Positions 6,440 to 50,641 of a stretch of 64,000 nt of DNA are shown here, piece after piece. The translations under genes were made by a program, and so were the position numbers. The notes beneath the pieces are model-generated. The model was not told the origin of the DNA and made no database searches. It saw nothing but the letters and a program-made list of their open reading frames with translations. Within the stretch, counting starts at the first letter, position 1, and each line of letters opens with the position of its first letter. This stretch comes from a virus: positions 4,778 to 68,777 of the IMG/VR virus record IMGVR_UViG_3300020401_000002; one strand, given 5' to 3'.

Positions 6440-6451
6440 ATAAATAAAACG

Positions 6452-19751: not shown

Positions 19752-21098
19752 ATGGCTGTAACTATGACTGGAGTAGGTGGTGCGTTAACTCCCTCTCCAA
19801 CGAAGTCGACATTATCGACTAACTATTTAGGATCAAGTATTGAGTTTACTTCTCAGTACTTACCAGAAGTATACGAAGCTGAATTTGAAAAGTATGGTAA
19901 CAGAACTGTTTCTTCTTTTCTAAGACAGCTAGGTGCAGAAATGCCTTTTGCTTCTGATGTTATTCAATGGGCTGAACAAGGAAGATTACACTTGGCGGTA
20001 ACTGCTGCAACTCGTGCTTCAGATGTTATTTCAAGTGCTGGTCACCCTTTCAGACTAAACCAAACTGTTGTTATTATCGATGGCGATGGTGATACTGATA
20101 AAGCTATCATCACTGACGTTGATGCAGGAGGTACTGAATTTACTGTTGCTTCTTACTCAGGAGCTAACTTAAATGCGAATCTTGCAAACAGTGGACTAAA
20201 AGTTTTTGCATTCGGTTCTGAATTTAAAAAAGGAACTAATGGAATGACTGGATCTCTAGAAGCTCCAAAAGACATCCTTACAAATAGCCCAATTATCATT
20301 AAAGATAAGTATGAGGTTAATGGATCAGACATGGCACAAATCGGATGGATTGAAGTGACTACTGAAAAAGGAACTACTGGATATCTATGGTATCTAAAAT
20401 CTGAGCATGAAACAAGACTAAGATTTGAAGACTATATGGAACTTTCTCTTGTAGAAGGTAGACCTGCTGCTTCATCTTCTGGTGCTGATACTGCTGGGTA
20501 CAAAGGTACTAAAGGTCTTTTCTATGAATTAGAGAACAGAGGCAACATTGCTACTGGAACTATTGATTCTAGAGATGATATTGAAGAGATTATTAAAATC
20601 TTAGACAAAGAAGGAGCTATTCAAGAAAATGCTCTTTTCGTAAACAGAACTAAATCTTTTGAGATTGACACAGTACTAGCTGCACAAAATAATAGCGGTG
20701 CTTCTACAAGCTCTTACGGTTTGTTTGACAACGATGAAGACATGGCGTTGAATCTTGGATTTAAAGGATTTAACCTTGGATATGACTTCTATAAAACTGA
20801 TTGGAAATACTTAAATGATCCAACTACTGGTGGTCTTACCTCTGCTGTTGATGGAGTTTTAGTTCCTGCTGGAACTACTTCTATCTACGATCAAGTAATG
20901 GGTAGAAACGCCACACGTCCTTTCCTACACGTTAAGTTTAGAAAGAACGAAGCTGAAGATCGTAAGTATAAGTCTTGGGTTGTAGGATCTGCTGGACCAT
21001 CTGGAATGTCTAGTGATCTTGATGCAATGCAAGTACACTTCTTATCAGAAAGAGCACTTTGCGTACATGGAGCGAACAACTTCATTTTGATGCAGTAA
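19752..21098 (+). CDS. Major capsid protein
   Basis: 448 aa after the scaffold, YLPEVYEAEFEKYGNRT motif, followed by a strong terminator. Confidence 0.85.
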   Translation: MAVTMTGVGGALTPSPTKSTLSTNYLGSSIEFTSQYLPEVYEAEFEKYGNRTVSSFLRQLGAEMPFASDVIQWAEQGRLHLAVTAATRASDVISSAGHPFRLNQTVVIIDGDGDTDKAIITDVDAGGTEFTVASYSGANLNANLANSGLKVFAFGSEFKKGTNGMTGSLEAPKDILTNSPIIIKDKYEVNGSDMAQIGWIEVTTEKGTTGYLWYLKSEHETRLRFEDYMELSLVEGRPAASSSGADTAGYKGTKGLFYELENRGNIATGTIDSRDDIEEIIKILDKEGAIQENALFVNRTKSFEIDTVLAAQNNSGASTSSYGLFDNDEDMALNLGFKGFNLGYDFYKTDWKYLNDPTTGGLTSAVDGVLVPAGTTSIYDQVMGRNATRPFLHVKFRKNEAEDRKYKSWVVGSAGPSGMSSDLDAMQVHFLSERALCVHGANNFILMQ

Positions 21099-21106
21099 TC
21101 TTAATC

Positions 21107-21137
21107 AGGGGGATGGGATTCTGTCCCCCTTTTTTTT
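21107..21137 (+). terminator. Intrinsic terminator after capsid gene
   Basis: AGGGGGATGG / CTGTCCCCCT hairpin followed by a T run. Confidence 0.85.
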
Positions 21138-22682: not shown

Positions 22683-23546
22683 ATGTCATTAACTGATCAG
22701 CAATATTATCAAGACAGCAGTAATTGGGGAGGTAATCAATTTATAAAACTCAATGACTTAATTAACAACTTCTATTTATTTTATGTAGGAGATGATAAGG
22801 TATTGCAATCTGTTAAAAGATATGACGTTGTTTTCCATGCTAAAAGAGCACTACAAGAATTACATTATGATGCTTTAAAAGATGTAAAAGCATTAGAACT
22901 AGAATTGCCACCAGATCTACAAGTAGAGTTACCTAAAGATTTTGTAAAACTTGTACGATTATCATGGGTAGATGAAAGAGGTAGATTACATCAAGTAATG
23001 AAAGACGACACCTCAACCATAGCAAAAGCATATTTACAGGACAGTAGTTATGATATATTATTTAATAACGATGGTGAAGCAATAGAAGGTACTCCTTATC
23101 TAGAACAAAAAATGACAGAGTTAGCAGATGCTGCAGAGAACAAGAGCACTGCATCAAATCTCAGCGAGGGACAAAACGGTGGTAGATTTGGTATGGATAC
23201 ATCTAGAGCAAACGTAAATGGAAAATATAGATTAGATAAAAAATTAGGTGTAATTAGATTTAGCTCTGAAGTAAAAGGACAGTTTGTAGTAATAGAATAT
23301 ATAACAGATGGATTATCCTATTTATCGGAAGATGAGCTTCAAGTAAACAAATTGGCAGAAGATTTTTTATACAAGCAAATAGCTCATCAAATTGTTAGCC
23401 ACAGATTTGGCATTCAAGAGTATATAGTTCGCAGGTATAAAAATGAAGCATTTGCAGCTATGAAAAATATGAAGATTAGAATGATGGATATCCATCCTTT
23501 TGATTTGATACAATCTCTGAAAGGTCGAAATAAGTGGATTAAATAA
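22683..23546 (+). CDS. Tail ring/tubular protein 2
   Basis: 287 aa; LPKDFVKLVRLSW and VVIEYITDG motifs; coupled to the muzzle gene. Confidence 0.65.
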   Translation: MSLTDQQYYQDSSNWGGNQFIKLNDLINNFYLFYVGDDKVLQSVKRYDVVFHAKRALQELHYDALKDVKALELELPPDLQVELPKDFVKLVRLSWVDERGRLHQVMKDDTSTIAKAYLQDSSYDILFNNDGEAIEGTPYLEQKMTELADAAENKSTASNLSEGQNGGRFGMDTSRANVNGKYRLDKKLGVIRFSSEVKGQFVVIEYITDGLSYLSEDELQVNKLAEDFLYKQIAHQIVSHRFGIQEYIVRRYKNEAFAAMKNMKIRMMDIHPFDLIQSLKGRNKWIK

Positions 23547-26500
23547 TGGAATCAAAAAACGTATTTTCTTCTGGTAAAATGAATCGTGATGCCGATGAGA
23601 GGCTGATTCAACAAGGCGAATATAGATATGCTCTAAACGCAAGAGTACTCAATTCGGCTACATCAGGTGTTGGTGCGTTAGAAAACGCATTATCTAACGA
23701 AGCAGTTACAACAAGCACAGACCTTGATTTCGGCACAAACCCTGTTTGTCTTGGTTCTGTTGCTGACGATTCACTAAATAAAATTTGGTGGTTTGTAAGA
23801 TCTGATGAAGGATCTTATATAGCTGAGTATGATATTGACAATAATCTTGCATCTTTCGTGTTACATGATGAAAGAGCAGGAAATGCCAATGTTCTAAATT
23901 TTTCTAAATCTGACTACGTCCAGGCTGATGTTTTATATGATAATGACAATGACATTATCATGTTGTTTTTTACAGATGGTATAAACGAGCCTAGGAAAAT
24001 AAATGTAGAAGAGGCAAAGCTTTTATCTCAAGGTTCATTTTTAGAATCAGATATAACTGTAATAAAAAAGCCACCTTTATTTCCACCGACACTAACACTA
24101 TCCACGTCTGGCAATACACAAACAAACAATTTAAAAGAAAAGTTTATCACTTTTGCATACAGGTATGAATATTCTGGTGGTGAGTATTCTGTTTTATCGC
24201 CTTTTTCTGAAGTAGCTTTTCAACCGTTTGATTTTACGTTTGACTATTCTATTTCTTCTAACGAGTCGATGTTAAATAAACACAACTCTGCTGCAATAGA
24301 AATTGAAACTGGAGGAAGTGATGTTGTAAAAATAGATTTAGTATTTAAAATATATGGAGATGATACACTTTTCCTGATAGAAAGTTTTGACAAATCTAAG
24401 CTAGGTATAGGTAATGACACTAACTATACTGTTGATTTTGACAACAATAAAATATACAAATTACTTGACAGCAGAGAACTAAAAAGGTATTACGACAATG
24501 TTCCATTAACTGCTAAAACACAAGCAATAGTAGATAACCGTATTATGTACGGAAACTACACAGAGAACTTTGATTTAAAAGATAGAAATGGAGATCAGAT
24601 AAAAATAGATTTTACTACATCTGTTACATCTAAAGAATCAGGTACTCCAGGTCCAGCATACAGATCTGTAAAAACTAACAGAGATTACGAACTAGGTCTT
24701 GTTTATCTAGATGATTTTGGAAGGTCAACAACTGTACTTACATCTAACACAAATTCAGTATACGTTGATGCATCAAAATCTAAATCTGAAAATTCATTAC
24801 AAGTACAGATAAATAGTTTGCCTCCTAAGTTTGCAACTAAGTATAGAATTTTTGTAAAACAAACAAAACAGAATTATTATAATATTCTTCCTACTATATT
24901 TAGAACAGATACTGACACAGGTTTTGTTTATGTACTGCTAAATGCAACGGATGTAAATAAAGTAAAAGAAGATGATTTTGTAATTGTAAAAGCAGATACT
25001 GGAGGACAAAAGACTACACTAGTAGAAACTAAAGTATTAGAAGTATCTTCTAAAGATCTAAACTTTTTAGAAGCTGAAGACTATCCAGGAACAAACGATC
25101 CGCCTATTGCACAACCTGCTGGTGTTTATATGAAGATAAAGCCAGTAGGCTTTAGAATGAATTTAGATGATTATGATGTTTATGAAAATAATGATTATGA
25201 CACTAGTGCTAACGATAGGAATGATCCTCTGGGATTTTATGGAGGGTTACCAGCAAAAACCACAGGACCATTCTATTACGGAACAACGTCATCTGCTGGT
25301 AATGATATTACTGTCGCTGGTACTTATAGTGGTAGCGTTTACGCTAGACTTACTATACAAATAGATGGAACTGGAGATGGTATAAGCACCTTTGACACGT
25401 TTACATGGGCTATAGATTATTTAGATGATGGAACTACACCTGGTGTATCAGCCACAGGAGTAACTATAACTCCAGGAGTACCTATAACTTTAGCAGATGG
25501 TATAACAGTTGACTGGGCAGCAGCAACAGGTCACGATACTTCAGATGAATGGAACTCTACATTAAAACCTGCAAACCCTACATATGATAATGACTCTAAA
25601 GCATACTCTGTTTTTAAAGGAATTGATGAGGTAGCAGACGAAGAGATTAGAGCAGGTACTATACTTAATTTTGAGTACGATGAATATAATGAAGCAACTC
25701 AATATTGGACTTATGAATTTGTGTCTAGTGGTAACTATCCTAATTTAGAGGAGTGGTATTTTAAGAGTGGTGCTAAACCAATATTTGATGCTGAATTTAG
25801 TGAAGCTAGAGTCTTTTTTGAAAGAGGTACTTATGGAAGCAGAACAACAAGCTTAGAACAATCAAGAGCTAATACAGATCCTATACATCTTATAATAAAA
25901 TCATTTGGAACACAAAACAATGATTTTGATTCTAGGGTTAAAGTAGATAATAGGTTTAGAATTACAAAAAGAGCATCTACTGATGAATTATGTTTTGAAA
26001 CAAAACCTGTAGAAGACACAACTGAGTTATATTATGAGACACCACAAACTTATAGTATTGTAAATGGATACCATACAGGTACTGCTGCTTCAGCAGGTCA
26101 AATACCGCAGGTAACACAAACATTAACACAAGGTAGTACCAACTTAACAGCAGTTAATAATGTAGGTTATGTAAACGTAACTGATCCTGTAGCTAGTGAT
26201 GACTGGGACAACTTTGCTGCATTGTCTTCTGATCCTTTTAGTGGAGATGCTTACAAACTGCAATTCACTCTTGAGCCTGATGACTATACAGCATTTGCAA
26301 ACTACACTAATGAACAAGGAGCTCCTGGCAACGGAAGTTTTGGTTTTGGTCAAGGTAAAACAATTACTATTACACAGGGTAGTGCTACTTTAACTGTTAA
26401 AGTATGGTACTTCCAAAGAAATGATATAACAGGAGGCACAAGAGTTACTTTATTTGATGACGATCAAGGTCTAACATCTATGAGTTCTACGAACTATGTT

Positions 26501-27400
26501 AGTGGTTCTGGATCTTTTGCTAATCTTGGAGGAGACTTTACAGTAGTATTTGGTGATGCAGTAGATATAGCTCAAAGCAGTACAAATCCAGCTACAATAG
26601 TTTTACCTTATTTTAACTGCTATGCTTTTGGTAATACAGTTGAAAGTATAAGAATTCGTGATTTATTCAATGCACCTGTATATAAGTTAGATACAAAACC
26701 ACTCACAAACTTACAGGAATATAAAAAATCTTTTAGAACTACTTCTATAACATGGAGTGGTATATATGAACAATCAACACAATTTAATGCATTAAACGAC
26801 TTTAGTCTTGCTGATCTAAACTACAAGGATTTAGATGATGAATATGGCAACGTAGGAAGGATAGTGCCAAGAGGATCAGACCTTATAGCATTTCAAGAAA
26901 ACAGAGTTTCAAGAATCCTTGTAAACAAAAACATATTATTTAATGCTGATGGATCTGGTAACGTAGGAGCATCAACAGATATATTAGGAACTGTCGTACC
27001 ATATGCAGGAGAGTTTGGTGTTACACGACATCCATTCTCAGTTTCGTTGTGGGGTGGACGTATATACTTTGTAGATGAAAGAAGAGGAGCAGTATGTCGA
27101 CTATCACAAGATGGCATAGAGCAAATATCAGATTTCGGAATGGTAGATTTCTTCAGAGACAACCTGAAAGGAGTAGATCCGTTCCGTGTATTAGGTGGCT
27201 TTGATCCACACGATAGGGAGTATGTGGTGTCCCTCCAGGGAACTTACAGTGAATGGAGACCAGATACAATAACGTGTGAGCTCATATATGACGATGATGC
27301 ACCACCGACTTCTACAACGTCAACAACCTCGACATCGTCCACGACAACGTCAAGTACAACAGCACCTCCAACAACGTCATCAACGACCTTTTTTTTTTGA
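23546..27400 (+). CDS. Tail stabilisation/muzzle protein (P22 gp10-like role), N-terminal part
   Basis: GKMNRD.DERL...GEYRYALN start; FAYRY.Y..GEYS..SPFS, NRIMYGNY, FNCYAFGNTVES, GEFGV..HP.S, GGFDPH..EYV motifs. Lacks the expected C-terminus and ends in Ser/Thr repeats at a T10 tract. Confidence 0.75.
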   Translation: MESKNVFSSGKMNRDADERLIQQGEYRYALNARVLNSATSGVGALENALSNEAVTTSTDLDFGTNPVCLGSVADDSLNKIWWFVRSDEGSYIAEYDIDNNLASFVLHDERAGNANVLNFSKSDYVQADVLYDNDNDIIMLFFTDGINEPRKINVEEAKLLSQGSFLESDITVIKKPPLFPPTLTLSTSGNTQTNNLKEKFITFAYRYEYSGGEYSVLSPFSEVAFQPFDFTFDYSISSNESMLNKHNSAAIEIETGGSDVVKIDLVFKIYGDDTLFLIESFDKSKLGIGNDTNYTVDFDNNKIYKLLDSRELKRYYDNVPLTAKTQAIVDNRIMYGNYTENFDLKDRNGDQIKIDFTTSVTSKESGTPGPAYRSVKTNRDYELGLVYLDDFGRSTTVLTSNTNSVYVDASKSKSENSLQVQINSLPPKFATKYRIFVKQTKQNYYNILPTIFRTDTDTGFVYVLLNATDVNKVKEDDFVIVKADTGGQKTTLVETKVLEVSSKDLNFLEAEDYPGTNDPPIAQPAGVYMKIKPVGFRMNLDDYDVYENNDYDTSANDRNDPLGFYGGLPAKTTGPFYYGTTSSAGNDITVAGTYSGSVYARLTIQIDGTGDGISTFDTFTWAIDYLDDGTTPGVSATGVTITPGVPITLADGITVDWAAATGHDTSDEWNSTLKPANPTYDNDSKAYSVFKGIDEVADEEIRAGTILNFEYDEYNEATQYWTYEFVSSGNYPNLEEWYFKSGAKPIFDAEFSEARVFFERGTYGSRTTSLEQSRANTDPIHLIIKSFGTQNNDFDSRVKVDNRFRITKRASTDELCFETKPVEDTTELYYETPQTYSIVNGYHTGTAASAGQIPQVTQTLTQGSTNLTAVNNVGYVNVTDPVASDDWDNFAALSSDPFSGDAYKLQFTLEPDDYTAFANYTNEQGAPGNGSFGFGQGKTITITQGSATLTVKVWYFQRNDITGGTRVTLFDDDQGLTSMSSTNYVSGSGSFANLGGDFTVVFGDAVDIAQSSTNPATIVLPYFNCYAFGNTVESIRIRDLFNAPVYKLDTKPLTNLQEYKKSFRTTSITWSGIYEQSTQFNALNDFSLADLNYKDLDDEYGNVGRIVPRGSDLIAFQENRVSRILVNKNILFNADGSGNVGASTDILGTVVPYAGEFGVTRHPFSVSLWGGRIYFVDERRGAVCRLSQDGIEQISDFGMVDFFRDNLKGVDPFRVLGGFDPHDREYVVSLQGTYSEWRPDTITCELIYDDDAPPTSTTSTTSTSSTTTSSTTAPPTTSSTTFFF

Positions 27401-30400
27401 TACCACTACCTCCACTACTCTGGAGCCTCTCCCTACTACAACAGAGTCTCCTGAACCTACCACAACTACAGCATTTGTATGTAAGCCATTTTACATAGGA
27501 ACTGATGCTGATGGTGACATATTCTTCTCTACTAATCCTGATCCGTGTGATAGGTATGATTACTTTGATGAAGCTTTCTGTCATAATGGAGCTGGTGATT
27601 TGCCAGATGTGTTTGACACAGTATATAGAATAGTAAATGGTCAGTATACACCTTTTGTAGGTTTTAATTCATGGTTTAGCACTTCTAAAACAAACGCATT
27701 TAGAAGTCAAACACAGGCTACACAAATAGGATTTGATGGAACAGTAATGAATAAATCAGCATGTAGTGCTAAAGAATTGCCTACTACATCAACATCATCT
27801 ACTTCTAGTACGACTTCTAGTACAACTTCATCTACCACAACATCTAGTACATCCTCTAGTACAACATCAACATCTAGTACCTCATCTACTACTAGCACTT
27901 CATCAACAACTACATCGTCAACTAGTAGCACAACGACAAGCACAAGCTCAACTAGTAGCACATCTAGTACAACATTATTGCCAACAAGCAGTACGTCAAC
28001 ATCAAGTACAAGTTCTAGCACAAGCTCTAGCACAAGTAGCTCAACAAGTAGTAGTACATCTAGTAGTACATCTAGTAGTACAAGTAGTTCTACAAGTAGT
28101 ACATCTTCTACTTCATCTACATCATCAACAACGAGTACATCGTCAACATCATCAACATCATCAACGTCATCTAGTACAATACCAACTTGTAATCCATTTG
28201 TTTTAGGAACTGGAACTGGAACAAGCGTACCTTATTGTAACTCTGATCCAGCAGTAGCTTGTGAAGCTGCTACAAGAATGTTAGCGGATATGTGTCATAA
28301 CGGTGATACAACTATACCAGAGGTTGGAGATAGAGTAAGAAGAATAAATGGTATAGTATTGCAAGGTGGAAACTGTTGGTTCCATGCTGGTGCTTCTTCT
28401 AATGCTGATTTGTCAACTGAGTATTATACACATATAATACAAATAGATAATAGTGGATACGTTGTAAGTGTTTATGATTGTAACCCACCTACAACAAGCA
28501 CAACTAGCTCTTCTACTAGCTCAACTACATCTAGCACAACGTCAACTAGTTCTTCTACTACAAGCACTTCTAGTACGACAACTTCATCTACAAGTTCTTC
28601 AACGACTAGTACAACAAGTACTTCTAGTACATCTAGCACTACAAGCTCTACTAGTTCTACTAGTTCTACAACAGAATCACCATTTACAACAACAAGTACT
28701 TCGAGCTCTACATCGACAAGTACTTCAAGCTCTACAACCTCAACGTCATCTACAACATTACCACCATACACAGAAATATTTAGAGCTCCATATCATTGTA
28801 ACACATCAACACATCCGACTTGCTCTACATCTTGTACAACACCAGTACAGTTTGACAATCAGACACTTTATTTTGATGGTGTGCTAACACCTTACCAGGG
28901 ATATATATACACTGATCCACAATTAACACAACCTTACTTTACAGGTGTATTTACATATCAAGGATTCTCATTTGATTCTAATGACAAAATGCAATGTAAA
29001 ATTGCACCTATGGTAATCCGTACATCTCAATCTGGTGCTATTATGGATATATGTGCAGCATGTCCAACAACAAGCACGACAAGCACAAGTTCTAGTACAA
29101 CATCGACATCAAGCACAACTAGCACAAGTAGTTCCACTAGTAGCACAACTTCCAGTACGTCTAGTTCAACATCATCTAGCACGACAAGTACATCTAGCTC
29201 TACAACAAGTACATCATCTAGCACAACTAGTACTTCATCGAGTACATCATCTAGTACGTCTAGTTCGACTACTTCTACGAGCTCAAGCACAACGAGTACA
29301 TCATCTAGTACATCATCCAGTACCTCTTCTAGTACCTCTAGTACATCAACGTCTAGTACAAGTTCTACAACAACATTTGGATGTCCTACTGGATCTTTCC
29401 CTGATGGTCCGTATAATTATCCAATATATCTTCTTAGGCAGTTGAGTGGTGGTGGGTATGTTTATGCTAATGCATATGAGTCTACTCCATATCAACCAGG
29501 AGATATAGTCACATTAAATGCAGGAAGTACAAACTGTTACTACGTTTTATGTTATTATCCAACCTCAGCATTTACGACTAACCAGGCATCTAGCGTAGCT
29601 GGTCCATGTCCAACAACTACGACTACACTACAACCTACGACTAGTACTTCGTCTAGTACCTCATCAAGTACATCGTCAAGTACTTCATCAAGTACATCGT
29701 CAAGTACTTCGTCTAGTACTTCGTCTAGCACATCTTCTAGTACTTCTTCTAGCACTACAAGCACGTCATCAAGTACATCAAGTACAACTAGTAGTACATC
29801 TTCTTCAACTTCTAGTTCTACATCAAGTACAACATTAGAGCCAACGACTTCTACATCTAGTTCTACATCATCAAGTACATCTAGTTCAACGTCTAGTTCT
29901 ACAAGTAGTTCTACATCTAGTTCTACAAGTAGTTCTACAACTAGTACGAGTAGTTCAACGTCTAGCACAAGTTCTACATCAAGTACTACAATAGAGCCGA
30001 CTACGTCAACATCTAGTACAACTATAAATCCTGGTTTATCTACAACGACAACTTCTAGTACATCAAGTACAACTAGTTCTACAAGTAGTACCTCAACATC
30101 GACAACCTCAACTTCAAGTACATCAAGTACAAGTACATCGAGTACAACACTACTACCAACAAGTGTCTTTTATTTAGGATCTGATCAATACGCATATGCT
30201 TGGTTTGCTAAAGAAAACTATGAATTTGCTCAGACCTTTGGTGGACCAACACATTGGTTCCATGATTTCTTATGTGATATAAATACATTTAAGCAAACAA
30301 AAAGACACAACGGTACAAATGCACTACCGCAAGTTGGTGATATGATTTATAATCCTAACACTTCTATGTTTGATGGATCATTAGGTGGTCACCAGGGATC

Positions 30401-31706
30401 TACTTACAACTGGTATATAATGACTGAAAACCCTCATGATGGTTCTACTACAGTTACTAATAAATACATGCTTAAAATTGATAATACTGGTGAAGTTCTA
30501 GATATTATTGATTGTTCTGTTGGTTCTACGACTACAACGTCTACTACTATTGCACCAGGAACACCAACAACAACAGTTAGTTTTGCAGCACAAAATTGTC
30601 CTGCTAGTTTTAGTTATGGAGCTTCAGGTGCACAAACATATCCTTCATTAACAAAAGTAAATTTAGGAACTGGAGTAGGATGGGTTGAGATAGATATATC
30701 AACATATCAATTACCTGATAAAATAGTAATAAAGTATTTAGGTGATATTGTATATGATACTGGTTATTTAGGCGATAGTAGTTACCAGTCAGATTTAGAT
30801 ACTGAATTAGCAAACAGAGGTCTGCCAAGTGAAACAATTACACAAGGAACTGGTGCTAATATTAGATGGTTTAAACCTCAAAGTTACTCATTGTTAGATG
30901 TAGAAGTATATGCACCATTAGCAGGTACAGGATGGGATGTAGATGTTTCTTGTCCAACTGCTCCAACGACAATACCACCAACAACTACTAGTAGTACGTC
31001 TAGTACAACGCTAGTTCCAACGACAACATTGTTCCCTACAACAACAACATCTACTATTGACACAGATGGAGATGGTATACCAGATCACATTGATCCAGAT
31101 GATGACAACGATGGATGCTACGATCACTTGGATAAATATCCAACAAATGCACAGTTTAATGCAGATGCATACTTCCAAGTATTTGCTGCAAGTGATAATT
31201 ATTTAGACACAGGTAACGGTCTTGCTAGTGTAGACGTGTCAGTATTTAGTCAATCTCTTACACCAACAGAGTTAAGACAAAGCTATCATCATATAGTCAA
31301 CTTAGGTAATGATATGCCTACAAACTTACAGATATGGGATCTAGGTCAAACATACTTTGGAACTTATCAAACTATGGCATCTAGTCAATACGCTAATGAT
31401 GGTTCAGATAACAGAGGATTCTATTATTACAACAAGAGACCACAGTTTGATGTATGTAATCATAACTATTGTTCTCCTCCTCCAGGATCTAATGTGTGTA
31501 TTATAAAAACATATGCTGATAAAGATTTTAGTGGAGGTCAGAATTCATTCCCAACATTTAATTTAACTCCATATTTTGCTATTATAAATTCAAGTGGTGG
31601 GCGTGTAGATGACTTATTTATAGTTAGATGGGAAGATGCAACAGTAGTGGCGTTATACACAGATGGAGTGGGATCTGCTAATCCAACATTACAAACATTA
31701 ACATAA
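27276..31706 (+). CDS. Mucin-like Ser/Thr-rich virion protein with Cys-bounded domains (probably the frameshifted continuation of the muzzle gene from 27399)
   Basis: About 1435 aa after the T tract; several long Ser/Thr tracts; repeated HNG..LP.VGD domains; DTDGDGIPD..DPDDDNDG acidic repeat. The predicted GTG-start segment before 27399 looks like an off-frame reading. Confidence 0.75.
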   Translation: MSSYMTMMHHRLLQRQQPRHRPRQRQVQQHLQQRHQRPFFFDTTTSTTLEPLPTTTESPEPTTTTAFVCKPFYIGTDADGDIFFSTNPDPCDRYDYFDEAFCHNGAGDLPDVFDTVYRIVNGQYTPFVGFNSWFSTSKTNAFRSQTQATQIGFDGTVMNKSACSAKELPTTSTSSTSSTTSSTTSSTTTSSTSSSTTSTSSTSSTTSTSSTTTSSTSSTTTSTSSTSSTSSTTLLPTSSTSTSSTSSSTSSSTSSSTSSSTSSSTSSSTSSSTSSTSSTSSTSSTTSTSSTSSTSSTSSSTIPTCNPFVLGTGTGTSVPYCNSDPAVACEAATRMLADMCHNGDTTIPEVGDRVRRINGIVLQGGNCWFHAGASSNADLSTEYYTHIIQIDNSGYVVSVYDCNPPTTSTTSSSTSSTTSSTTSTSSSTTSTSSTTTSSTSSSTTSTTSTSSTSSTTSSTSSTSSTTESPFTTTSTSSSTSTSTSSSTTSTSSTTLPPYTEIFRAPYHCNTSTHPTCSTSCTTPVQFDNQTLYFDGVLTPYQGYIYTDPQLTQPYFTGVFTYQGFSFDSNDKMQCKIAPMVIRTSQSGAIMDICAACPTTSTTSTSSSTTSTSSTTSTSSSTSSTTSSTSSSTSSSTTSTSSSTTSTSSSTTSTSSSTSSSTSSSTTSTSSSTTSTSSSTSSSTSSSTSSTSTSSTSSTTTFGCPTGSFPDGPYNYPIYLLRQLSGGGYVYANAYESTPYQPGDIVTLNAGSTNCYYVLCYYPTSAFTTNQASSVAGPCPTTTTTLQPTTSTSSSTSSSTSSSTSSSTSSSTSSSTSSSTSSSTSSSTTSTSSSTSSTTSSTSSSTSSSTSSTTLEPTTSTSSSTSSSTSSSTSSSTSSSTSSSTSSSTTSTSSSTSSTSSTSSTTIEPTTSTSSTTINPGLSTTTTSSTSSTTSSTSSTSTSTTSTSSTSSTSTSSTTLLPTSVFYLGSDQYAYAWFAKENYEFAQTFGGPTHWFHDFLCDINTFKQTKRHNGTNALPQVGDMIYNPNTSMFDGSLGGHQGSTYNWYIMTENPHDGSTTVTNKYMLKIDNTGEVLDIIDCSVGSTTTTSTTIAPGTPTTTVSFAAQNCPASFSYGASGAQTYPSLTKVNLGTGVGWVEIDISTYQLPDKIVIKYLGDIVYDTGYLGDSSYQSDLDTELANRGLPSETITQGTGANIRWFKPQSYSLLDVEVYAPLAGTGWDVDVSCPTAPTTIPPTTTSSTSSTTLVPTTTLFPTTTTSTIDTDGDGIPDHIDPDDDNDGCYDHLDKYPTNAQFNADAYFQVFAASDNYLDTGNGLASVDVSVFSQSLTPTELRQSYHHIVNLGNDMPTNLQIWDLGQTYFGTYQTMASSQYANDGSDNRGFYYYNKRPQFDVCNHNYCSPPPGSNVCIIKTYADKDFSGGQNSFPTFNLTPYFAIINSSGGRVDDLFIVRWEDATVVALYTDGVGSANPTLQTLT
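27389..27400 (+). other. T10 homopolymer / TTT-TGA slippery site joining two ORFs in the +1 frame
   Basis: ACC TTT TTT TTT TGA T; removing one T or shifting +1 reads TTFFFDTTTSTT and fuses the ORFs into 2719 aa. Confidence 0.75.
27781..30150 (+). repeat. Low-complexity Ser/Thr-coding tracts
   Basis: Main tracts at about 27781-28178, 28485-28757, 29066-29375 and 29612-30150, built from mixed TCT/TCA/AGT/AGC and ACA/ACT/ACG codons. Confidence 0.9.
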
Positions 31707-43327: not shown

Positions 43328-46300
43328 ATGGAAGAAGAAGAAGTTATTGATGGTGCTGTACAAGGACCAGATACTGAGCAAAAAGCTCAACAAAGGTCTG
43401 AGTCTCAAGAAGCACTAGATAGAGATGCTGAGATAAAAGAAAGACAAGCTCAGTTAGACAGGGTAAAGGCAGGATCAAGGACGTTCCAGGCTTTACAAAC
43501 TTCTTATGCCATGTTCCAGGAAGAAGGATACAATGGTGGCTTCGAAGAGTATTTTGAATTACTATGTAAAAACCCTGATGCATTACAAACTGCATTCACT
43601 ATGTTCCAGGAAGAAGGATATAATGGTGATTTCGATGGTTTTAAAAAGTTAGTTGGAGTTGAGGAGGTTCAAAAAAAAAATCCTGGCGACACCTCAGATT
43701 CAGATTCTTCAGTTACATCTGTAGATTCTCCTACAGATCCAAACATTCAAAGTAAGATAAGTGACGACAATCAAAAGTCACTAAACGCAGGTACATTTAC
43801 TTCATTCAAAGAGCTGTGGGAAAACATGCCTACTGCTGAGGAATATTATTCAGATTCTGTAAGACCAGAAATCACACAGTTAGAACCCATGCCTGATAAA
43901 AAAGATAAATCTTTTATTCAGAGTGTAGTAAACAGATTAAACCTACCAGGTTTTGGTAAAGAAACTGAGTCTTTTGTTACTTTAAAAGACAGAGGTATTT
44001 CAAAAGATGAGATGGAAAGGCGAGAAAAAAGGAAAGCAGACTTTGAAGCTTATCAAAAGGGAGAAAAAGAATTAGACTTCATGACTAACCTGTCTAATAA
44101 CCTTACACAACAAATGGGTTATTTAGCTGGTACAGATGACAGACATAAGTTTGCATATGCTGTAATGTATCAAGATTTAGATGCACTACAAGCTTCTGCA
44201 TTAGAGTTAGATAGAATAGAAAATTACGCAAAGCCAGTATACACTCCTGAAGATTTTTTTAAAGACGATGAAAAAAGCATTGGTAAGTTTGGTCAAGCTG
44301 TAACAACTGGCTTATCAGGATTTTTAGGAAGTGCTGTTATAGGAGGATTGTCATTTGGGTATGGGTTATATACTGATTTTGCAGCATCACAAATATATAA
44401 TTACAACAGGAGAGAGGCAGAAGCTAAAGGTATAAGTTTAGAAGAGCAAATCACTAATGGTGATACAGACATATTAGTTCCTGCAACTATAGGTATTCTT
44501 CAGGGAGTATTAGAAAAGTTTCAGTTAAATCGTATTTCAAGAGGCATCAATGCAGTTGGGAACAAGGCTATGAAAAGAGTAATTAACTTTTTTGCTGGTG
44601 TTGGTAAGAACGGTGCTGAAGAATTTGGACAAGAATCTTTAGAGATTGTATCAGAACATATAGCTGATGCTGATGCAAAAGATGACTTCAGCGATGTTGA
44701 GTTAGATGACATGGGCAAAAGCATAGCTAAAGAAATGTTTAGCTGGAGAACAGCAAATGCCTTTTTACTTGGTGCGTTTGGTTCTGGAGCTGCAACAATA
44801 AGTGGTTCGGCTGCTAAGTCAGCATTTACTATGCTTAAAACTAAAGAGCAAGAAGATCAAGATGAAAAAAATGTAGAAAAATTAGCTGACATAGAAAGAA
44901 TCAGGTCTACAAAAAAACTTAATAAAGATGAGAAGGCAGCATTAAAAATAGCAGAAGAAAGAGTAAAGGCAGAGTTAAAAAGAAATCAGGAGCTCGTGTC
45001 TGATAAAGTTATGCAGATGACTGATGCTGAATTAGAACAGACACAACGACTGTATCACAAAGACAAAGACTTAAACTCTAGGATTGAGGGTGTACAGAAC
45101 TCAAAAACATTTAGTGAGGAAGAAAAGAAAACCTACATAGATGAACTGTTAGTAGAAAAAAAGAAGATAGCAGATGAAATAACGCAAATAGAAGATGCTA
45201 TCAAAACAAGAGAACCTCAAAATGCACAGGTCGTAGCTGCTCCTTACTTTGATTTAGAAGTAAACAATGCAACTGAAGCATCTAGAGTTAGATCATCAAA
45301 AAATTATCAAGAAAATATAGCTAGACTTACAAGTTTAGCAACCGACATGGGTATCAGAGTCGAGGTTGTAGATAAAACTATAGGCGGATACGAGCATGAA
45401 GGTAGGGGTGCAGTTCAGGAAGTTTCTACAGTATTCAATGTAATGAGTACAGACATGGATAAAATTGCAGACTTCGCTGCTATAGCTGCAACACAAACTG
45501 CTGCTGTCCAGGATGCTACTATTGCTGCTAGATATACGGAAGAAGGTGCTGAAGGACACAACGCAGATGAATGGACTATTAAAGTTGACGATGTAGATGC
45601 TACATTAGAAGCTTTAAAAGAAGTTGGTATCACTGAATTTACACTAAACGAGGATCAAGGAACAGTATCCTTCCTCGATTTACATAAGTTCCCAGATGCA
45701 GAATTAGATAGTAAAACAGATAAATTAATAGATGTACTAAATAGTAAAGGAGTAAGTTATGAAGGCAAAACAAAAACCGCAGTCGAGAGCAGATATATTG
45801 ACCGCAAGGAAAGAAAACAAATTCTACAAGCTATTCGACAACGTCTCGCCCAACAAGGACAAACTGGGACAGGGCTTTATCGTCAGGTCGAAGATGCGTT
45901 AACTAAAAACGAAATATTCTTAGAGAAAAGATTTCCTGAAGAAAGTAATATTAGATCTACAGCAGATAAAAAGAAATATAAGTTTGCACAAACTGATGAT
46001 CCAAAAACATTAGCAGAGCTTAAAGATCGTACTTTAGATCCTCGTAAAAGAGATTTGATAGAACAAGCAGAAAAAGCAGCTAAAGCTTTTGAAACTGTAG
46101 CACCTGATGCTGTCATCAGATTACATGAAACAAAACAATCTTATGCTGCTTCAGTAGGAGGTAGAGCAGGTAGAACTAGTATGGGTGCATACAATAGAAA
46201 AACTAATATAATACATATTAGTCTTAAAGATGCAGATCCTAGTACGGTAGGTCATGAGGTTTTCCACTTACTATTAAGACGTAAGTTTTCTGATGACAAA

Positions 46301-49300
46301 CAAATACAAGCTGCCACTAAAGAATTATTTGATACTTTAAAAGAACAAGTAGGTGGTAAAACTAAAGAAGCAATAGAGCAACTCGTCTCTAATTATAAGG
46401 AAAACCAGAAAGACGAAGAAAGAATTGTAGAGTTGTTTGGTCTTATGTCTTCAAATCAAACAGACATTCCTAAAACATCAGTACAAGCAATTAAGTTATG
46501 GGTAAATAAAGTAGCTAAATTATTAGGTATAGGTAAACTATTTACAGGTAGAGATGTAGGTAGAGCTGAACAAATAGATATATTTAAAAGACTTGCTACT
46601 AAAGTTGCTACAGCAGAACAGCTTACTGATGTGGATATACATTCTATATCAGAAGCTCAGGATCAAACAGAAGTAAACTCAGAGGATATTGTTAGACCTA
46701 AAATAATAGACGATGACGATACTATAGCAAAAAGAACTGTAGGTCCATTTGACATACAATATTTTAATGAGACAGAAAGGTTCCAAAAACTTATAGATGA
46801 AGGTAGATTGATCACTCATGTAGATTCTTCTTTTATTCCAGAGGGTGCACAAGTTGTAGTCCACTCGCCTGATAACATGTTTGTAGGTGATATATATCAC
46901 AGAGGTGAAAAGATTATTAATGGTGAGGGTGGTTTATTTTATACACTTAACACAGATAATGTATGGGCATCAACAGAACAAAATTTAACTTCTTTAGTAA
47001 ACACAATCAACAAAGCTGTAAAGGCATCACCTGATGGAAAAGCATTCATGATGCTAGTTGGAGGTAGTAATAGTAAAATGTTAGGGAATATAACTGCATC
47101 ATCTGCAGCACTACAGGTCCTTAACAAGATGCCAGAAAAAAATATATTCGCCAGAGGTGATCTAAGAAAGATATTGGCAGACGTTGGTAAGGAACGTGGT
47201 ATAGATATTCCTCCAAAGTTTAGTGTTGAAAGAATGATTCAGCATATTGATAAAACATTCTTAGCTACAGAGAAACCTTCTTTTGATGAACGTAGAAGTT
47301 TTATACAGGATATAGTTAAGAGAATTGGTGAGTTAGAAGGAGTCAAAAACGACAAGGTCGCTAATCAAAAGTTCAGAGAGTTCTTTGGTATGAGTGATAT
47401 GTCAAAATTATCGAAGACAGGATTTACAAATAACCTTGCTAATCTTTTAACTGAACCTTTACTCCAGGGATTACCTAGTGGTCACGCTTATGCTGCCATA
47501 GAAATAAATGGTCCTGTTGAGGGATTTGTAGAAAGATCACACAGAGCTTATGCAGGAGCTGTTAAGCAAAAAGAAGGTGTTCCAACACTACACTTGTTTG
47601 ATAAAAGACAAAATATAGATGAGTTAGTTGATACTGTGGATGGTTTATCTAAGGATGCAGAAACTAAACCAGGAGAATTTAGAGGAAAGATAGGTTTAGC
47701 TCAAGCAGGTTTAGGAATAGGCGTAATAAAACAAAGCATTGATGAAGCTGTTAGTGCTAAGATGACACCAGAAGAAGGTAAACGAGCTGATAGATCTGAT
47801 AAAGGATGGAAGGAAGTTACTGAAGAGGGGAAAAGATTGTTGTCTCCTCCTAAAAGAAGTTTAAAACAGCGTTTTAAAGAAGGTATAAATAATTTCATGA
47901 CGAACTGGATGGATAGACAGTTTGATGTAAAAAAGAAATTATTAAAAACAAAAGATGCTACAGCTAAAGAAGTATATAATCGTCTTATAACTGCTGCTGG
48001 TGCTAGTGCTAGTGCTAAAAATGTGTTCAGACAATTCGATAAGTTGATATATGGTAAGCTTAGTGAAAAGAATAAAGAAGCATTAGACCGTATTATAGCA
48101 GAGAGAAGACTTATAGCTATAGAAGAAAACATAAGTAAAAGGAAAAAGAATTTAAAGAATGCAAAAAATTTAACAGAAGGGTATAAAAGAGGAAGACAAG
48201 GACTTACTGCTGACGATGCTAGAGCTGCATTAAAAAGAATGAGAGAGCAATTAGGTGAAGATACATACAACGATCTAAATAATAGAGCTGATGTATACTT
48301 CCAAGCAATGTCTGATCAGCTTAAAAGATTATATGAAGGAGGTAGGATAACTGAGAAGATGTATTTAAATCTTCGTGACATTGAGTATTCACCTATACGA
48401 ACTATCAAGTTCATGTTGCAAGAAAACCAAGACTTGTATAGCCAAGACAGTATAGATGCACAAGCAGAAAAGTATGGAATGACTGCAGAAGATATAAAAG
48501 CTTTGACTGAAGCAAATGAGGATGCATATGTTCAGGACAGTAGATGGCTTTTAAGAACTCAGATTGCAGTAACAGAAAAAAAATTCTTCCAAAACAGTTT
48601 ATTGAATCAGGTAGGTAAACTTGTTGACGAAGGAAAAGCAGAAGGTTTAGGAATTACAAGATTAGTTCCAGGTATGCCAGGAAATCCTGTAAGCAACAAA
48701 GCATTCTTATCTAAAAAAGGTTTAGCTGAAGTTAAATACAAAGTAGATGGAGAAGATGCTACTTTATATATGCCTGTAGATATGGCTCGACAGATATTAG
48801 ATATAGATCCTGAGCCTAATGTGACAGCTAGATACAGGAAAGCTGGTAAATTTACTGGATCAAATCTACTTAGATTCCAGGCAACTGGAGGTAACCTTAC
48901 ATTCTTTGTAAGAAACGTGCCAATGGATTATTTAAACGTGTTATTCTTTACAGATGCGTATGGTAAATTTAAATTATTGTCTGGTGCTCAACTTGCTATC
49001 GATGGTATAGTAAATGCAACTAAGGCTACCTTAAGAACAAAAGGATTTAAAGAAAATTACAATGAGTTTTTAAAGTATGGAGGTGGTCTAGACTTTCTAG
49101 GTGTAGATGGTATTGCTAAAATAGAGGAAGCAAAAATTGTAAGAGGTTTAAAAACTGCACAGCAAAAAGCAGGTTATTATTTTGTCAAAGGATTGTCTCA
49201 CTTCAATGAAATAGCCGAGCTTACATTTAGGTTATCTGTATACAACAAAACAAAAAACGACCTTATAAGTGAATATAAGAAAGCTAATGATGGAGGTACA

Positions 49301-50641
49301 CCACAAGGTGATGCACTTAACTCTATATTATTTGAAGCTGCTGCAAAAGCAAGAGCTTCTATAGATTTTGCACAAGGTGGTATAAAAGCAAGAAGGTTAG
49401 ACAAATTCTTTCCATATTTTAATCCTGCAATGCAATCTACCAGGAGAGTATTAGATATGGCACAACAAAAACCAGTAGAGTTTGTAAGTAATATTACACA
49501 GGCTGGTTTAATGTCTGCTGGTGTAGTTGCTGGTATGGGTATGCTGATGGGATACTTGATGGGAACTGATGACGAAGATGAAATTAAAGAGAAGATAAAA
49601 GACTTCAGACAAGGATTGAGTAAGTACGAGAAATCAAATTACTTTACATATCCTGTAGGTATTAATGCTGATGGTTCTGTAAAGTATGTCAGGATAAGAA
49701 AACTACCTATACTATCTATACCTATTACGTTAGCAGAAGAAGTTGCTTATAAACGTATCTGGGGTATTGATATGGATGATTCTGCTCTGGCTGAGTCAGT
49801 ATTATCATCTGCTCCTATCTTACCTTCAAATTTACTATCAAGAAACCCTGCTATATCTGCAGCATTTGCTTTAGGTGGTTATGATACTTTTAGAAGAGAG
49901 ATGATATTTAAAGATCCTGATCCATACAACCCTATACCTGCTAGTAAACAAGGTATACATAGTGAATATGTAAACGAGTTATTTAAAGTGACAGGAGATA
50001 TCACAGGTTTATCACCTATGAATACACAAAGAGCAGCAGAAAAATTGTTTACTAATCCAAATACAAATCCTTTAGTTGGTTTAGCGTATGCAGGTTTTGA
50101 AGCAGGTTTGTCTGAAAACACAGAACTGAATCAGAGAATGAAACAGGGTATGGAAGACTTTAAGAAAGCTACAAGCAAAGCTGTTGTCAGAAATAGTAAT
50201 CCTGATCTACAGAAGTACGCACAAAGAGAGGTGATCAACAAAGAAATACAAGAAATATTAGGTTCTAAATATGAAAGAGATCAGAAGTATAAAAGAAAAG
50301 TTCGTGATTTACTAAAAGAAAAACCTGGTACAAGGAGATTACCAGAAGATTTACGAATGGAAATTTTAAAAGACTTTGGGAGAGATGACTATATAAGAGC
50401 AAGAGATAAATATACTAAATATTTAACTTTGAAAAATGGAGATGGTAGAATCATAGACATAGGGTTTCAACGAGATCCTGACGTTGCTGCTAAGTTAATA
50501 ATGAGTGGCTATGGTGTCATGGATCCTGAAGTATTTAGAGATTTTGATATGAAAGTAAAATCATACACTGGTAAAAGATTATCTAAAAGAACAAAAATAG
50601 CATATGGTAAGTTAGTTAGAGATGCTGGAGGTATAAAATAG
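43328..50641 (+). CDS. Giant internal virion / polyvalent protein with HExxH metallopeptidase-like motif
   Basis: 2437 aa; STVGHEVFH zincin motif; C-terminal DFAQGG...FPYFNPAMQ region resembling LPD38-type domains; hydrophobic Gly/Ala segments. Confidence 0.7.
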   Translation: MEEEEVIDGAVQGPDTEQKAQQRSESQEALDRDAEIKERQAQLDRVKAGSRTFQALQTSYAMFQEEGYNGGFEEYFELLCKNPDALQTAFTMFQEEGYNGDFDGFKKLVGVEEVQKKNPGDTSDSDSSVTSVDSPTDPNIQSKISDDNQKSLNAGTFTSFKELWENMPTAEEYYSDSVRPEITQLEPMPDKKDKSFIQSVVNRLNLPGFGKETESFVTLKDRGISKDEMERREKRKADFEAYQKGEKELDFMTNLSNNLTQQMGYLAGTDDRHKFAYAVMYQDLDALQASALELDRIENYAKPVYTPEDFFKDDEKSIGKFGQAVTTGLSGFLGSAVIGGLSFGYGLYTDFAASQIYNYNRREAEAKGISLEEQITNGDTDILVPATIGILQGVLEKFQLNRISRGINAVGNKAMKRVINFFAGVGKNGAEEFGQESLEIVSEHIADADAKDDFSDVELDDMGKSIAKEMFSWRTANAFLLGAFGSGAATISGSAAKSAFTMLKTKEQEDQDEKNVEKLADIERIRSTKKLNKDEKAALKIAEERVKAELKRNQELVSDKVMQMTDAELEQTQRLYHKDKDLNSRIEGVQNSKTFSEEEKKTYIDELLVEKKKIADEITQIEDAIKTREPQNAQVVAAPYFDLEVNNATEASRVRSSKNYQENIARLTSLATDMGIRVEVVDKTIGGYEHEGRGAVQEVSTVFNVMSTDMDKIADFAAIAATQTAAVQDATIAARYTEEGAEGHNADEWTIKVDDVDATLEALKEVGITEFTLNEDQGTVSFLDLHKFPDAELDSKTDKLIDVLNSKGVSYEGKTKTAVESRYIDRKERKQILQAIRQRLAQQGQTGTGLYRQVEDALTKNEIFLEKRFPEESNIRSTADKKKYKFAQTDDPKTLAELKDRTLDPRKRDLIEQAEKAAKAFETVAPDAVIRLHETKQSYAASVGGRAGRTSMGAYNRKTNIIHISLKDADPSTVGHEVFHLLLRRKFSDDKQIQAATKELFDTLKEQVGGKTKEAIEQLVSNYKENQKDEERIVELFGLMSSNQTDIPKTSVQAIKLWVNKVAKLLGIGKLFTGRDVGRAEQIDIFKRLATKVATAEQLTDVDIHSISEAQDQTEVNSEDIVRPKIIDDDDTIAKRTVGPFDIQYFNETERFQKLIDEGRLITHVDSSFIPEGAQVVVHSPDNMFVGDIYHRGEKIINGEGGLFYTLNTDNVWASTEQNLTSLVNTINKAVKASPDGKAFMMLVGGSNSKMLGNITASSAALQVLNKMPEKNIFARGDLRKILADVGKERGIDIPPKFSVERMIQHIDKTFLATEKPSFDERRSFIQDIVKRIGELEGVKNDKVANQKFREFFGMSDMSKLSKTGFTNNLANLLTEPLLQGLPSGHAYAAIEINGPVEGFVERSHRAYAGAVKQKEGVPTLHLFDKRQNIDELVDTVDGLSKDAETKPGEFRGKIGLAQAGLGIGVIKQSIDEAVSAKMTPEEGKRADRSDKGWKEVTEEGKRLLSPPKRSLKQRFKEGINNFMTNWMDRQFDVKKKLLKTKDATAKEVYNRLITAAGASASAKNVFRQFDKLIYGKLSEKNKEALDRIIAERRLIAIEENISKRKKNLKNAKNLTEGYKRGRQGLTADDARAALKRMREQLGEDTYNDLNNRADVYFQAMSDQLKRLYEGGRITEKMYLNLRDIEYSPIRTIKFMLQENQDLYSQDSIDAQAEKYGMTAEDIKALTEANEDAYVQDSRWLLRTQIAVTEKKFFQNSLLNQVGKLVDEGKAEGLGITRLVPGMPGNPVSNKAFLSKKGLAEVKYKVDGEDATLYMPVDMARQILDIDPEPNVTARYRKAGKFTGSNLLRFQATGGNLTFFVRNVPMDYLNVLFFTDAYGKFKLLSGAQLAIDGIVNATKATLRTKGFKENYNEFLKYGGGLDFLGVDGIAKIEEAKIVRGLKTAQQKAGYYFVKGLSHFNEIAELTFRLSVYNKTKNDLISEYKKANDGGTPQGDALNSILFEAAAKARASIDFAQGGIKARRLDKFFPYFNPAMQSTRRVLDMAQQKPVEFVSNITQAGLMSAGVVAGMGMLMGYLMGTDDEDEIKEKIKDFRQGLSKYEKSNYFTYPVGINADGSVKYVRIRKLPILSIPITLAEEVAYKRIWGIDMDDSALAESVLSSAPILPSNLLSRNPAISAAFALGGYDTFRREMIFKDPDPYNPIPASKQGIHSEYVNELFKVTGDITGLSPMNTQRAAEKLFTNPNTNPLVGLAYAGFEAGLSENTELNQRMKQGMEDFKKATSKAVVRNSNPDLQKYAQREVINKEIQEILGSKYERDQKYKRKVRDLLKEKPGTRRLPEDLRMEILKDFGRDDYIRARDKYTKYLTLKNGDGRIIDIGFQRDPDVAAKLIMSGYGVMDPEVFRDFDMKVKSYTGKRLSKRTKIAYGKLVRDAGGIK

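Follow-up and report, generated by a model that had tools for sequence, protein, structure and literature searches.

A frame break at a T-run in the muzzle gene

The window analysed here, a 64,000-nucleotide (nt) stretch of DNA, covers bases 4778–68777 of the 68,777-bp virus record IMGVR_UViG_3300020401_000002, which carries direct terminal repeats and was rated 100% complete. On its + strand, the open reading frame (ORF) of a crass-type muzzle protein (ORF1) ends at a run of ten T, and a second long frame (ORF2) continues past this T-run in the +1 frame. The features of the junction were as follows.

23546..27400, + strand: ORF1, the muzzle short form of 1284 amino acids (aa), with the C-terminus TTFFF followed by TGA (ORF call, Pfam, PHROG)
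27299..27388, + strand: start of the Ser/Thr-rich linker in ORF1, residues 1252–1281, after the core end ...CELIYDDD
27362..27443, + strand: block of suppressed synonymous variation, approximately −12 to +15 codons (codon identity, five lineages)
27389..27398, + strand: T10, the candidate slip site, made up of three TTT codons and the T of TGA (sequence, relatives, bridging contigs)
27398..27400, + strand: 0-frame TGA abutting the T-run, which ends the short form (TGA in 12/12 sequences)
27399..31706, + strand: ORF2 in the +1 frame, the 1435-aa extension, with its stop at 31704–31706 (substitution rates, no conserved start)

Read directly, positions 27386–27401 of the + strand were ACC-TTT-TTT-TTT-TGA-T. 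A preliminary description of this DNA had proposed that a T10 tract running into TTT-TGA separates a short muzzle protein from a joined form of 2719 aa, and both the coordinates and the ORF lengths agreed with this. The +1 frame was open from 27273 to 31706, with 1435 residues past the T-run, giving a joined product of 1284 + 1435 = 2719 aa. The Ser/Thr repeats, described as starting about 30 codons before the muzzle stop and resuming in the +1 frame, started at residue 1252, 33 codons upstream of the stop, and the Ser/Thr composition picked up again past the T-run as DTTTSTTLEPLP. The perfect UUU-to-UUU re-pairing before UGA, also pointed out there, was present in the sequence. The 64-kb window (35% GC) contained one T10 and one A10, and a lone 10-nt A/T run is within chance; what exceeded chance was the placement of the T-run at the frame junction, together with its conservation in every relative examined.

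Reading of the TGA as tryptophan was ruled out, as the 0 frame closes approximately 17 codons past it; as further evidence, TGA terminated 8 of the 34 tallied ORFs of at least 150 aa. No phage tRNAs able to alter decoding were found in the window. The T-run was also rejected as an intrinsic terminator, there being no terminator-like site at the run.

The muzzle label given in the preliminary description was confirmed by a match of ORF1 residues 3–342 to the Pfam family PF25731 (crAss_MUZ, Crassvirus muzzle protein), with 57 bits at a cut-off of 27 (E 1.4e-15). ORF1 also matched phrog_14478 ('virion structural protein', E 2.6e-241), and its homologues bear precomputed PF25731/PF25729 assignments. 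A sequence search of PDB chains with ORF1 yielded no match, and neither did a nucleotide search of a phage collection with the junction region. The muzzle of PhiCrAss001 is described in the available part of the source as a hexamer of approximately 1 MDa and the gate of the tail tip (PMC10172136).

Conservation of the T-run and selection on ORF2

Protein-guided scanning, once through metagenome contigs and twice through viral contigs, yielded seven related loci. Clade A consisted of the window and loci L001 and L003–L008, with 73–100% identity in ORF1. It represents approximately six distinct records, since L003 is possibly the window's own source and L001 and L005 look like one contig in two collections. 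All eight clade A sequences contained exactly ten T, followed by GATACCACTACC. Clade B (L011–L014, 56–61% identity) had T11 in 4/4 loci, as GAT TTT TTT TTT TGA, with the TTT-TTT-TTT-TGA phase as in clade A and a homologous +1 ORF of 1391–1589 aa. The clade B DNA came from the scan with protein P0085, which yielded 69 loci, 48 with a complete ORF1; the split arrangement was observed in four of these 48, and all four were the clade B loci. The preliminary description had named conservation of the T-run and frame break in related genomes as a check, and both were kept in 12/12 sequences. The length of the run varied neither within clade A nor within clade B.

At the protein level, all 13 best protein clusters (56–100% identity) ended in ...TT(D)FFF, with the DNA behind seven of these clusters unseen, and the next cluster (52%) lacked this ending. 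In a quick maximum-likelihood tree, the 12 FFF-ending proteins of at least 1000 aa were placed on one side of a branch with an SH-like approximate likelihood ratio test (SH-aLRT) value of 100, adjoined by 28 proteins with an in-frame extension. The tree contained 45 rows (P0075–P0102 minus the 823-aa fragment P0086, P0006–P0018 and five outgroup rows).

This sister clade (approximately 50% identity) encoded single ORFs of 1548–3221 aa. The core ended at a shared motif (...EEWREDEVECEILYD) and continued into a long in-frame extension of thrombospondin type-3 (TSP3) repeats, beginning where the Ser/Thr linker of ORF1 begins. Because the extension is in frame in the sister clade, core and arm would be a natural single protein in the muzzle family, and the predicted products of the sister clade and the window differ only in linker chemistry and the frame break. 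The sister clade (P0088–P0102 and P0006–P0018) fell into two length classes, one of approximately 1550–1790 aa with all members ending in ...KVD.T.P and one of approximately 2350–3220 aa without this motif. The distal modules of its arm appear to be often swapped.

The T-run was additionally bridged in independent assemblies. Logan contigs from three runs (X2, X4 and X7; depths of about 30, 29 and 5.6, respectively) crossed it without an indel or a change in run length, the X7 contig with 13 substitutions over 571 bases. Contigs of run X6 ended at 27350 and restarted at 27537, with no contig across the T-run. A pattern scan of IMG/VR allowing T8–T13 recovered only the already known T10 contig, and a search of proteins of 2248–5000 aa found no fused (T9-type) protein above 51% identity.

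These data bear on two explanations in which the frame break is not an expression signal. Some sequencing chemistries are prone to errors in homopolymers, and the preliminary description had considered a sequencing error, with a true T9 and one continuous 2719-aa ORF, equally live. This was not borne out. Contigs of many different records and collections had the same run length, the independent Logan assemblies concurred, and the deeper clade with T11 was likewise out of frame. Runs of 10 nt were also assembled without a frame break, as the in-frame A10 elsewhere in this genome shows. We consider the chance of an assembly or sequencing error close to negligible.

The second explanation is phase variation in the DNA. 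Ten-nt homopolymers are mutable during replication, and replication slippage could toggle the gene between T10 (off) and T9 (on), producing virions with six arms or none. Toggling of the population had also been offered in the preliminary description, and the data did not favour it: the 'on' allele was the majority allele in 0/12 sequences and 0/3 bridging contigs, and the searches for other run lengths and for fused proteins came back empty, as described above. Purifying selection on ORF2, with synonymous divergence of up to 1.5, would moreover be hard to sustain if the frame were off in almost all genomes. As assemblies and Logan contigs show the majority allele only, minor T9 genomes are conceivable. 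Overall, phase variation is rated improbable.

ORF2 is a real coding sequence under purifying selection. Its ratio of non-synonymous to synonymous substitution rates (dN/dS) was 0.12–0.23 within clade A, at dS values of 0.3–1.5 (849–856 codons outside the Ser/Thr linkers), and 0.34–0.38 between clade A and clade B. The protein was conserved from the first codon past the T-run. As the preliminary description had stated, the downstream ORF had no convincing start: start codons were unconserved, and the first occurred at +97 to +294 nt in L001/L005 and clade B.

ORF2 could alternatively be a gene in its own right, translated from its own start, perhaps a non-canonical or internal one. In four of the five clade A lineages, ATGs in the ORF2 frame were present 102–111 nt upstream of the T-run. 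However, these arise as by-products of the conserved Tyr-Asp-Asp-Asp codons of ORF1. In L001/L005 a stop separates them from the run; only 26 nt of open frame precede the run there, and the first ATG/GTG/TTG follows at +294 nt. Clade B lacks these ATGs: its +1 frame is open for only 62 nt upstream of the stop, with the first start codon at +97 or +256 nt. The first downstream starts in L006 and L007 were at +870 and +804. Across lineages, downstream starts varied and fell inside or past the first conserved domain. Promoter-like matches near the junction were at the chance level (4, compared with a shuffle mean of 4.4), which counted against a separate gene and also led us to reject the T-run as an internal promoter. 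Independent initiation of ORF2 is thus very improbable, and the comparison supports ORF1 and ORF2 being one expression unit joined at the T-run.

Routes from the short to the long muzzle form

We estimate the probability that the junction is a conserved programmed recoding site, of either kind, giving short and 2719-aa long muzzle isoforms at approximately 85%. Standard decoding would end at the UGA abutting the run and yield the 1284-aa subunit, presumably the majority. In a minority of expression events, one U-equivalent would be lost (net +1) and 1435 more codons would be translated, yielding a 2719-aa subunit whose long C-terminal arm would resemble beads on a string, with small beta-rich domains set between Ser/Thr linkers. 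Since only a minority of subunits would shift frame, a hexameric muzzle would bear fewer than six arms.

For the frame change itself, we tentatively prefer slippage of RNA polymerase on the U10 tract, at slightly less than even odds. Some mRNAs would then contain U9 and be read by ordinary ribosomes into the fusion. Polymerase slippage is favoured because the whole homopolymer is conserved and not merely UUU_U, because a companion A10 run in another gene has no adjacent stop and because no ribosomal stimulator is conserved. The three Phe codons of the T-run, inside a Ser/Thr linker, were TTT in 7/7 lineages, compared with only 15 all-TTT columns among 50 invariant-Phe columns elsewhere. Polymerase slippage also has in its favour a terminator-like hairpin with T8 in the virion module, which suggests transcription by a bacterial-type polymerase, and the reported slippage of bacterial RNA polymerase on runs of at least seven T, with a bias towards poly(T), according to the available part of PMC6260861.

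Programmed +1 ribosomal frameshifting, the other kind of recoding, is the strong rival. With UGA in the A site, peptidyl-tRNA-Phe would slip from UUU to UUU, and GAU would be read next. The re-pairing on UUU is perfect by sequence, and a 0-frame UGA directly 3' of a UUU able to re-pair in +1 (UUU_UGA_U) was present in 12/12 sequences. The flanks of the junction were also constrained. Among codon columns with an invariant, degenerate residue in the five clade A lineages, 18/21 were identical in two non-overlapping 12-codon windows flanking the junction, compared with 465/1533 (30%) gene-wide, and 10/10 were identical in a 12-codon window centred on it. The clade B pair showed the same peak, with 12/12 identical codons at the centre against a background of 52%. 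Synonymous conservation over approximately ±12 codons is typical of frameshift cassettes. Yet the synonymous sites of these flanks differed between clades A and B, so the constrained feature is not one fixed motif. A ribosomal shift would also need only UUU_U, whereas 10–11 T are conserved, and the conserved A10 in another gene has no adjacent stop.

Stimulators of ribosomal shifting were not evident. The alignment contained no conserved Shine–Dalgarno (SD)-like (GGAGG-like) element upstream, the region being G-poor, and no conserved downstream hairpin or pseudoknot was predicted (RNAalifold with seven lineages, −0.41 kcal/mol, 3 pairs). The single-sequence fold at the junction was likewise not notable (z −0.08). 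Such stimulators are not required in every known case. Translation in Bacteroidota is SD-independent, so stimulation of the prfB type is unlikely there. Taken together, we regard a ribosomal shift as possible, although on the doubtful side.

Several observations weigh against polymerase slippage as the preferred mechanism. In both clades the stop follows directly on the run, and T10 and T11 share one codon phase, TTT-TTT-TTT-TGA-T; polymerase slippage needs neither feature, and ribosomal shifting predicts both. UUU_Ynn is listed as prone to +1 shifts in bacteria in the available text of PMC5009743, which also reports that Listeria phage PSA shifts +1 at the codon just 5' of a stop. The A10 is not strictly discriminating, because it is also a possible ribosomal slip or sliding site. 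The uniform use of TTT for the three Phe codons is a modest statistic (0.3 cubed, approximately 0.03) from lineages that are not independent. The synonymous constraint in the flanks is unexplained under either mechanism. The case for recoding as a whole rests on DNA comparison, and metatranscriptomes of the same samples (four runs) contained hardly any of the words sampled. Polymerase slippage and a +1 ribosomal shift could also act together, and sequence comparison alone is unable to separate the two.

The only other 10-nt run in the window was an A10 at 43671–43680, located approximately 115 codons into a 2437-aa ORF (43328..50641) without a family match. It is in frame and encodes a Gln-Lys-Lys-Asn context. 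An exact in-frame A10 occurred 64–117 codons into the corresponding giant ORF (approximately 2400 aa) in all eight contigs with the region available: the window, two from clade B, one from clade A and four from the sister clade, the seven besides the window being loci L080–L085 and L093. The protein flanking the run was 25–34% identical, and the flanking bases differed. Either slipped frame closes within 13–48 codons. The A10 lacks an adjacent stop, and the homopolymer itself is the feature common to the T10 and A10 sites. The A10 is a possible second programmed slippage site giving a short N-terminal product. A 61-kb sister-clade contig contained a second A10 run (G004:C1:56418-56427, − strand).

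Both runs could belong to a homopolymer-slippage expression programme of these marine Flavobacteriia-type podophages, in which U10/U11 would set the arm number and A10 would split the output of the giant ORF. We consider such a programme unlikely on present evidence. If it existed, the A10 in the 2437-aa virion-module ORF, presumably even older than the T-run, would yield a full-length product and a fragment of approximately 130 aa. Virions would be heterogeneous in arm number, a form of bet-hedging in adsorption without DNA change. Since both ratios would depend on the transcribing polymerase, changes in nucleoside triphosphate pools, temperature or host could alter them.

The junction shares features with several known systems. 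The prfB gene, encoding release factor 2 (RF2), contains CUU_UGA_C, where the tRNA pairs anew with UUU after moving +1; the shift relies on an upstream SD-like stimulator and serves as a feedback sensor of RF2. Both sites have a slippery codon before an in-frame UGA. The muzzle junction differs in that it has no conserved SD-like element and encodes a structural product rather than a feedback regulator. In Campylobacter phages, hypermutable poly-G tracts in receptor-binding genes reportedly vary in length between genomes. There too, a homopolymer in a host-recognition gene governs whether the distal part is made, but the T-run of the muzzle gene is fixed in length within each clade.

The available excerpts of PMC5009743, which also mention RF2 frameshifting, describe programmed shifts that add a C-terminal module to some virion subunits in T3/T7 gene 10, Lactobacillus phage A2, Listeria phages and lambda G-T. 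One likeness there is Listeria phage PSA (Tsh and capsid genes), in which a +1 shift lets a structural gene produce both a short form and a form lengthened at the C-terminus; for Tsh the shift is at the codon just 5' of the stop. In PSA, however, the site is a proline codon and the extension is small, as opposed to a 10-nt U-run and 1435 aa in a muzzle gene of a phage from another host phylum. T3 gene 10 and phage A2 resemble the muzzle gene in placing an accessory binding-type domain on a fraction of the virion subunits. The same excerpts mention relatives with a similar extension in frame, or out of frame 'by chance', which parallel the in-frame TSP3 sister clade (PMC5009743). Unlike the muzzle gene, T3 gene 10 and A2 use a −1 shift and append immunoglobulin-like domains; site type and size differ, and ORF2 had no match to such domains.

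Thermus thermophilus dnaX and Shigella spa13/mxiE, also covered by these excerpts, have A/T runs of approximately 9–10 nt, mixed mRNAs and two products in a set ratio (PMC5009743). As in dnaX and spa13, an A/T run of at least 9 nt, conserved as a run, lay at the junction in 12/12 sequences, always as TTT codons. The dnaX and spa13/mxiE genes are cellular, and for the muzzle gene mixed mRNAs are a proposal from DNA comparison. The long form of Thermus dnaX is the 0-frame product, an arrangement that corresponds to the A10 and not to the T10. The gp44 muzzle of PhiCrAss001 shares with ORF1 the PF25731 match and possibly its place in the virion module, as ORF1 follows the portal gene and genes for small virion proteins. 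It differs in that only the N-terminal approximately 340 residues of ORF1 match the profile, and the available part of PMC10172136 describes neither a recoded extension nor a long arm for it.

Literature outside subscription journals (including PMC7886860 and PMC12386605) was searched for frameshift or slippage sites described in muzzle genes or in phages of the Cellulophaga type, and none was found. New are the crass-type muzzle as the gene family concerned and a 10–11-nt U-run ending in UGA that is fixed across two clades, as well as an appended part of 1435 aa, longer than the core, and the partner A10. Gene callers split the gene into a 'structural protein' and a start-less orphan ORF of approximately 1450 aa, so the likely host-contact arm of an abundant marine phage group is mis-annotated in every record considered here. 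If recoding occurs as proposed, programmed recoding would extend to the crass-type muzzle, the gatekeeper of the tail tip. The in-frame sister clade, the T10 clade and the T11 clade would form a natural three-state system that bears on arm limits in a sixfold assembly. Two conserved 10-nt homopolymers in one genome would also offer a means to separate polymerase slippage from ribosomal shifting in Bacteroidota.

The ORF2 arm and its genomic context

ORF2 contained 47% Ser+Thr and was organized into seven small globular segments (81–216 aa) separated by six Ser/Thr linkers of 88–132 aa. Segments 1, 2 and 5 were paralogous by alignment. A single Asp-rich, TSP3-like repeat was located near the C-terminus, and a C-terminal domain was also present. 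One bead domain was confidently predicted to be all-beta, with a predicted local distance difference test (pLDDT) score of 88.9 and a predicted template modelling (pTM) score of 0.80. A model of the C-terminal 385 aa was poor (pLDDT 45.3). Judged by this architecture, the arm is probably an adhesion or receptor-contact structure.

Repeats of the bead domain (approximately 105–125 aa, Cys-containing) were located at 27456–27785, 28179–28493 and 30153–30524, with the conserved residues F..G, C, H.G, P..GD and W. The domain resembled small proteins, as yet uncharacterised, from Cellulophaga phage phi17:1 and virus NIOZ-UU157 (template modelling scores of 0.6–0.7). Three BFVD matches to the bead-domain model had E ≤ 0.001, all of them uncharacterised aquatic-phage proteins. 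Against PDB, Foldseek gave no match at E ≤ 0.001, and the best VIA match, with a Z of 3.4, was not a clear one. The ORF2 sequence itself had no significant match in Pfam, PHROGs or PDB.

In a tblastn search with the last 517 aa, only a domain of approximately 100 aa was matched, in phages of Xylella, Xanthomonas and Stenotrophomonas. ORF2 residues 1067–1185 (approximate; window positions approximately 30597–30953) were 36–41% identical to a protein of Xylella phage Xfas53 annotated as head completion/closure and had counterparts of the same identity in the jumbo phages XacN1, CM1 and RAS14. This region is apparently a surface domain that moves between phages. A word-index search with the ORF2 C-terminus returned seven distant proteins and missed known close relatives, probably through low-complexity crowding.

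The portal gene (phrog_6547) and several small genes matching 'virion structural protein' PHROGs were located upstream of ORF1. The closest cultured phages were Cellulophaga phi38:1, phi40:1 and Calle (Pervagoviridae), at approximately 36% identity. The phi40:1 counterpart, gp097 (3975 nt), is annotated as a structural protein with support from mass spectrometry and has no comparable extension. As the nearest cultured relatives are Cellulophaga phages, we assign the phage to the marine relatives of crass-type podophages, with a host that is probably a member of the Flavobacteriia.

A distant muzzle homologue in locus L032 (IMGVR_UViG_3300001589_000413, approximately 6001–9880) was split as well: an ORF of 809 aa stops at a TGA, and one of 795 aa continues in the +1 frame. 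The two overlap by approximately 110 nt, with no homopolymer at the break, and the split may represent another frame break or an assembly error.

Within the virion gene module of the window, a hairpin (10-bp stem, 6 GC pairs, −16.9 kcal/mol) followed by T8 was located at 21107–21137, directly after the ORF 19752..21098. The same layout was found at the corresponding position in L001, L003, L005 and L008, with a different stem sequence in L001. The element looks like an intrinsic terminator, which suggests that a bacterial-type polymerase reads the virion module.

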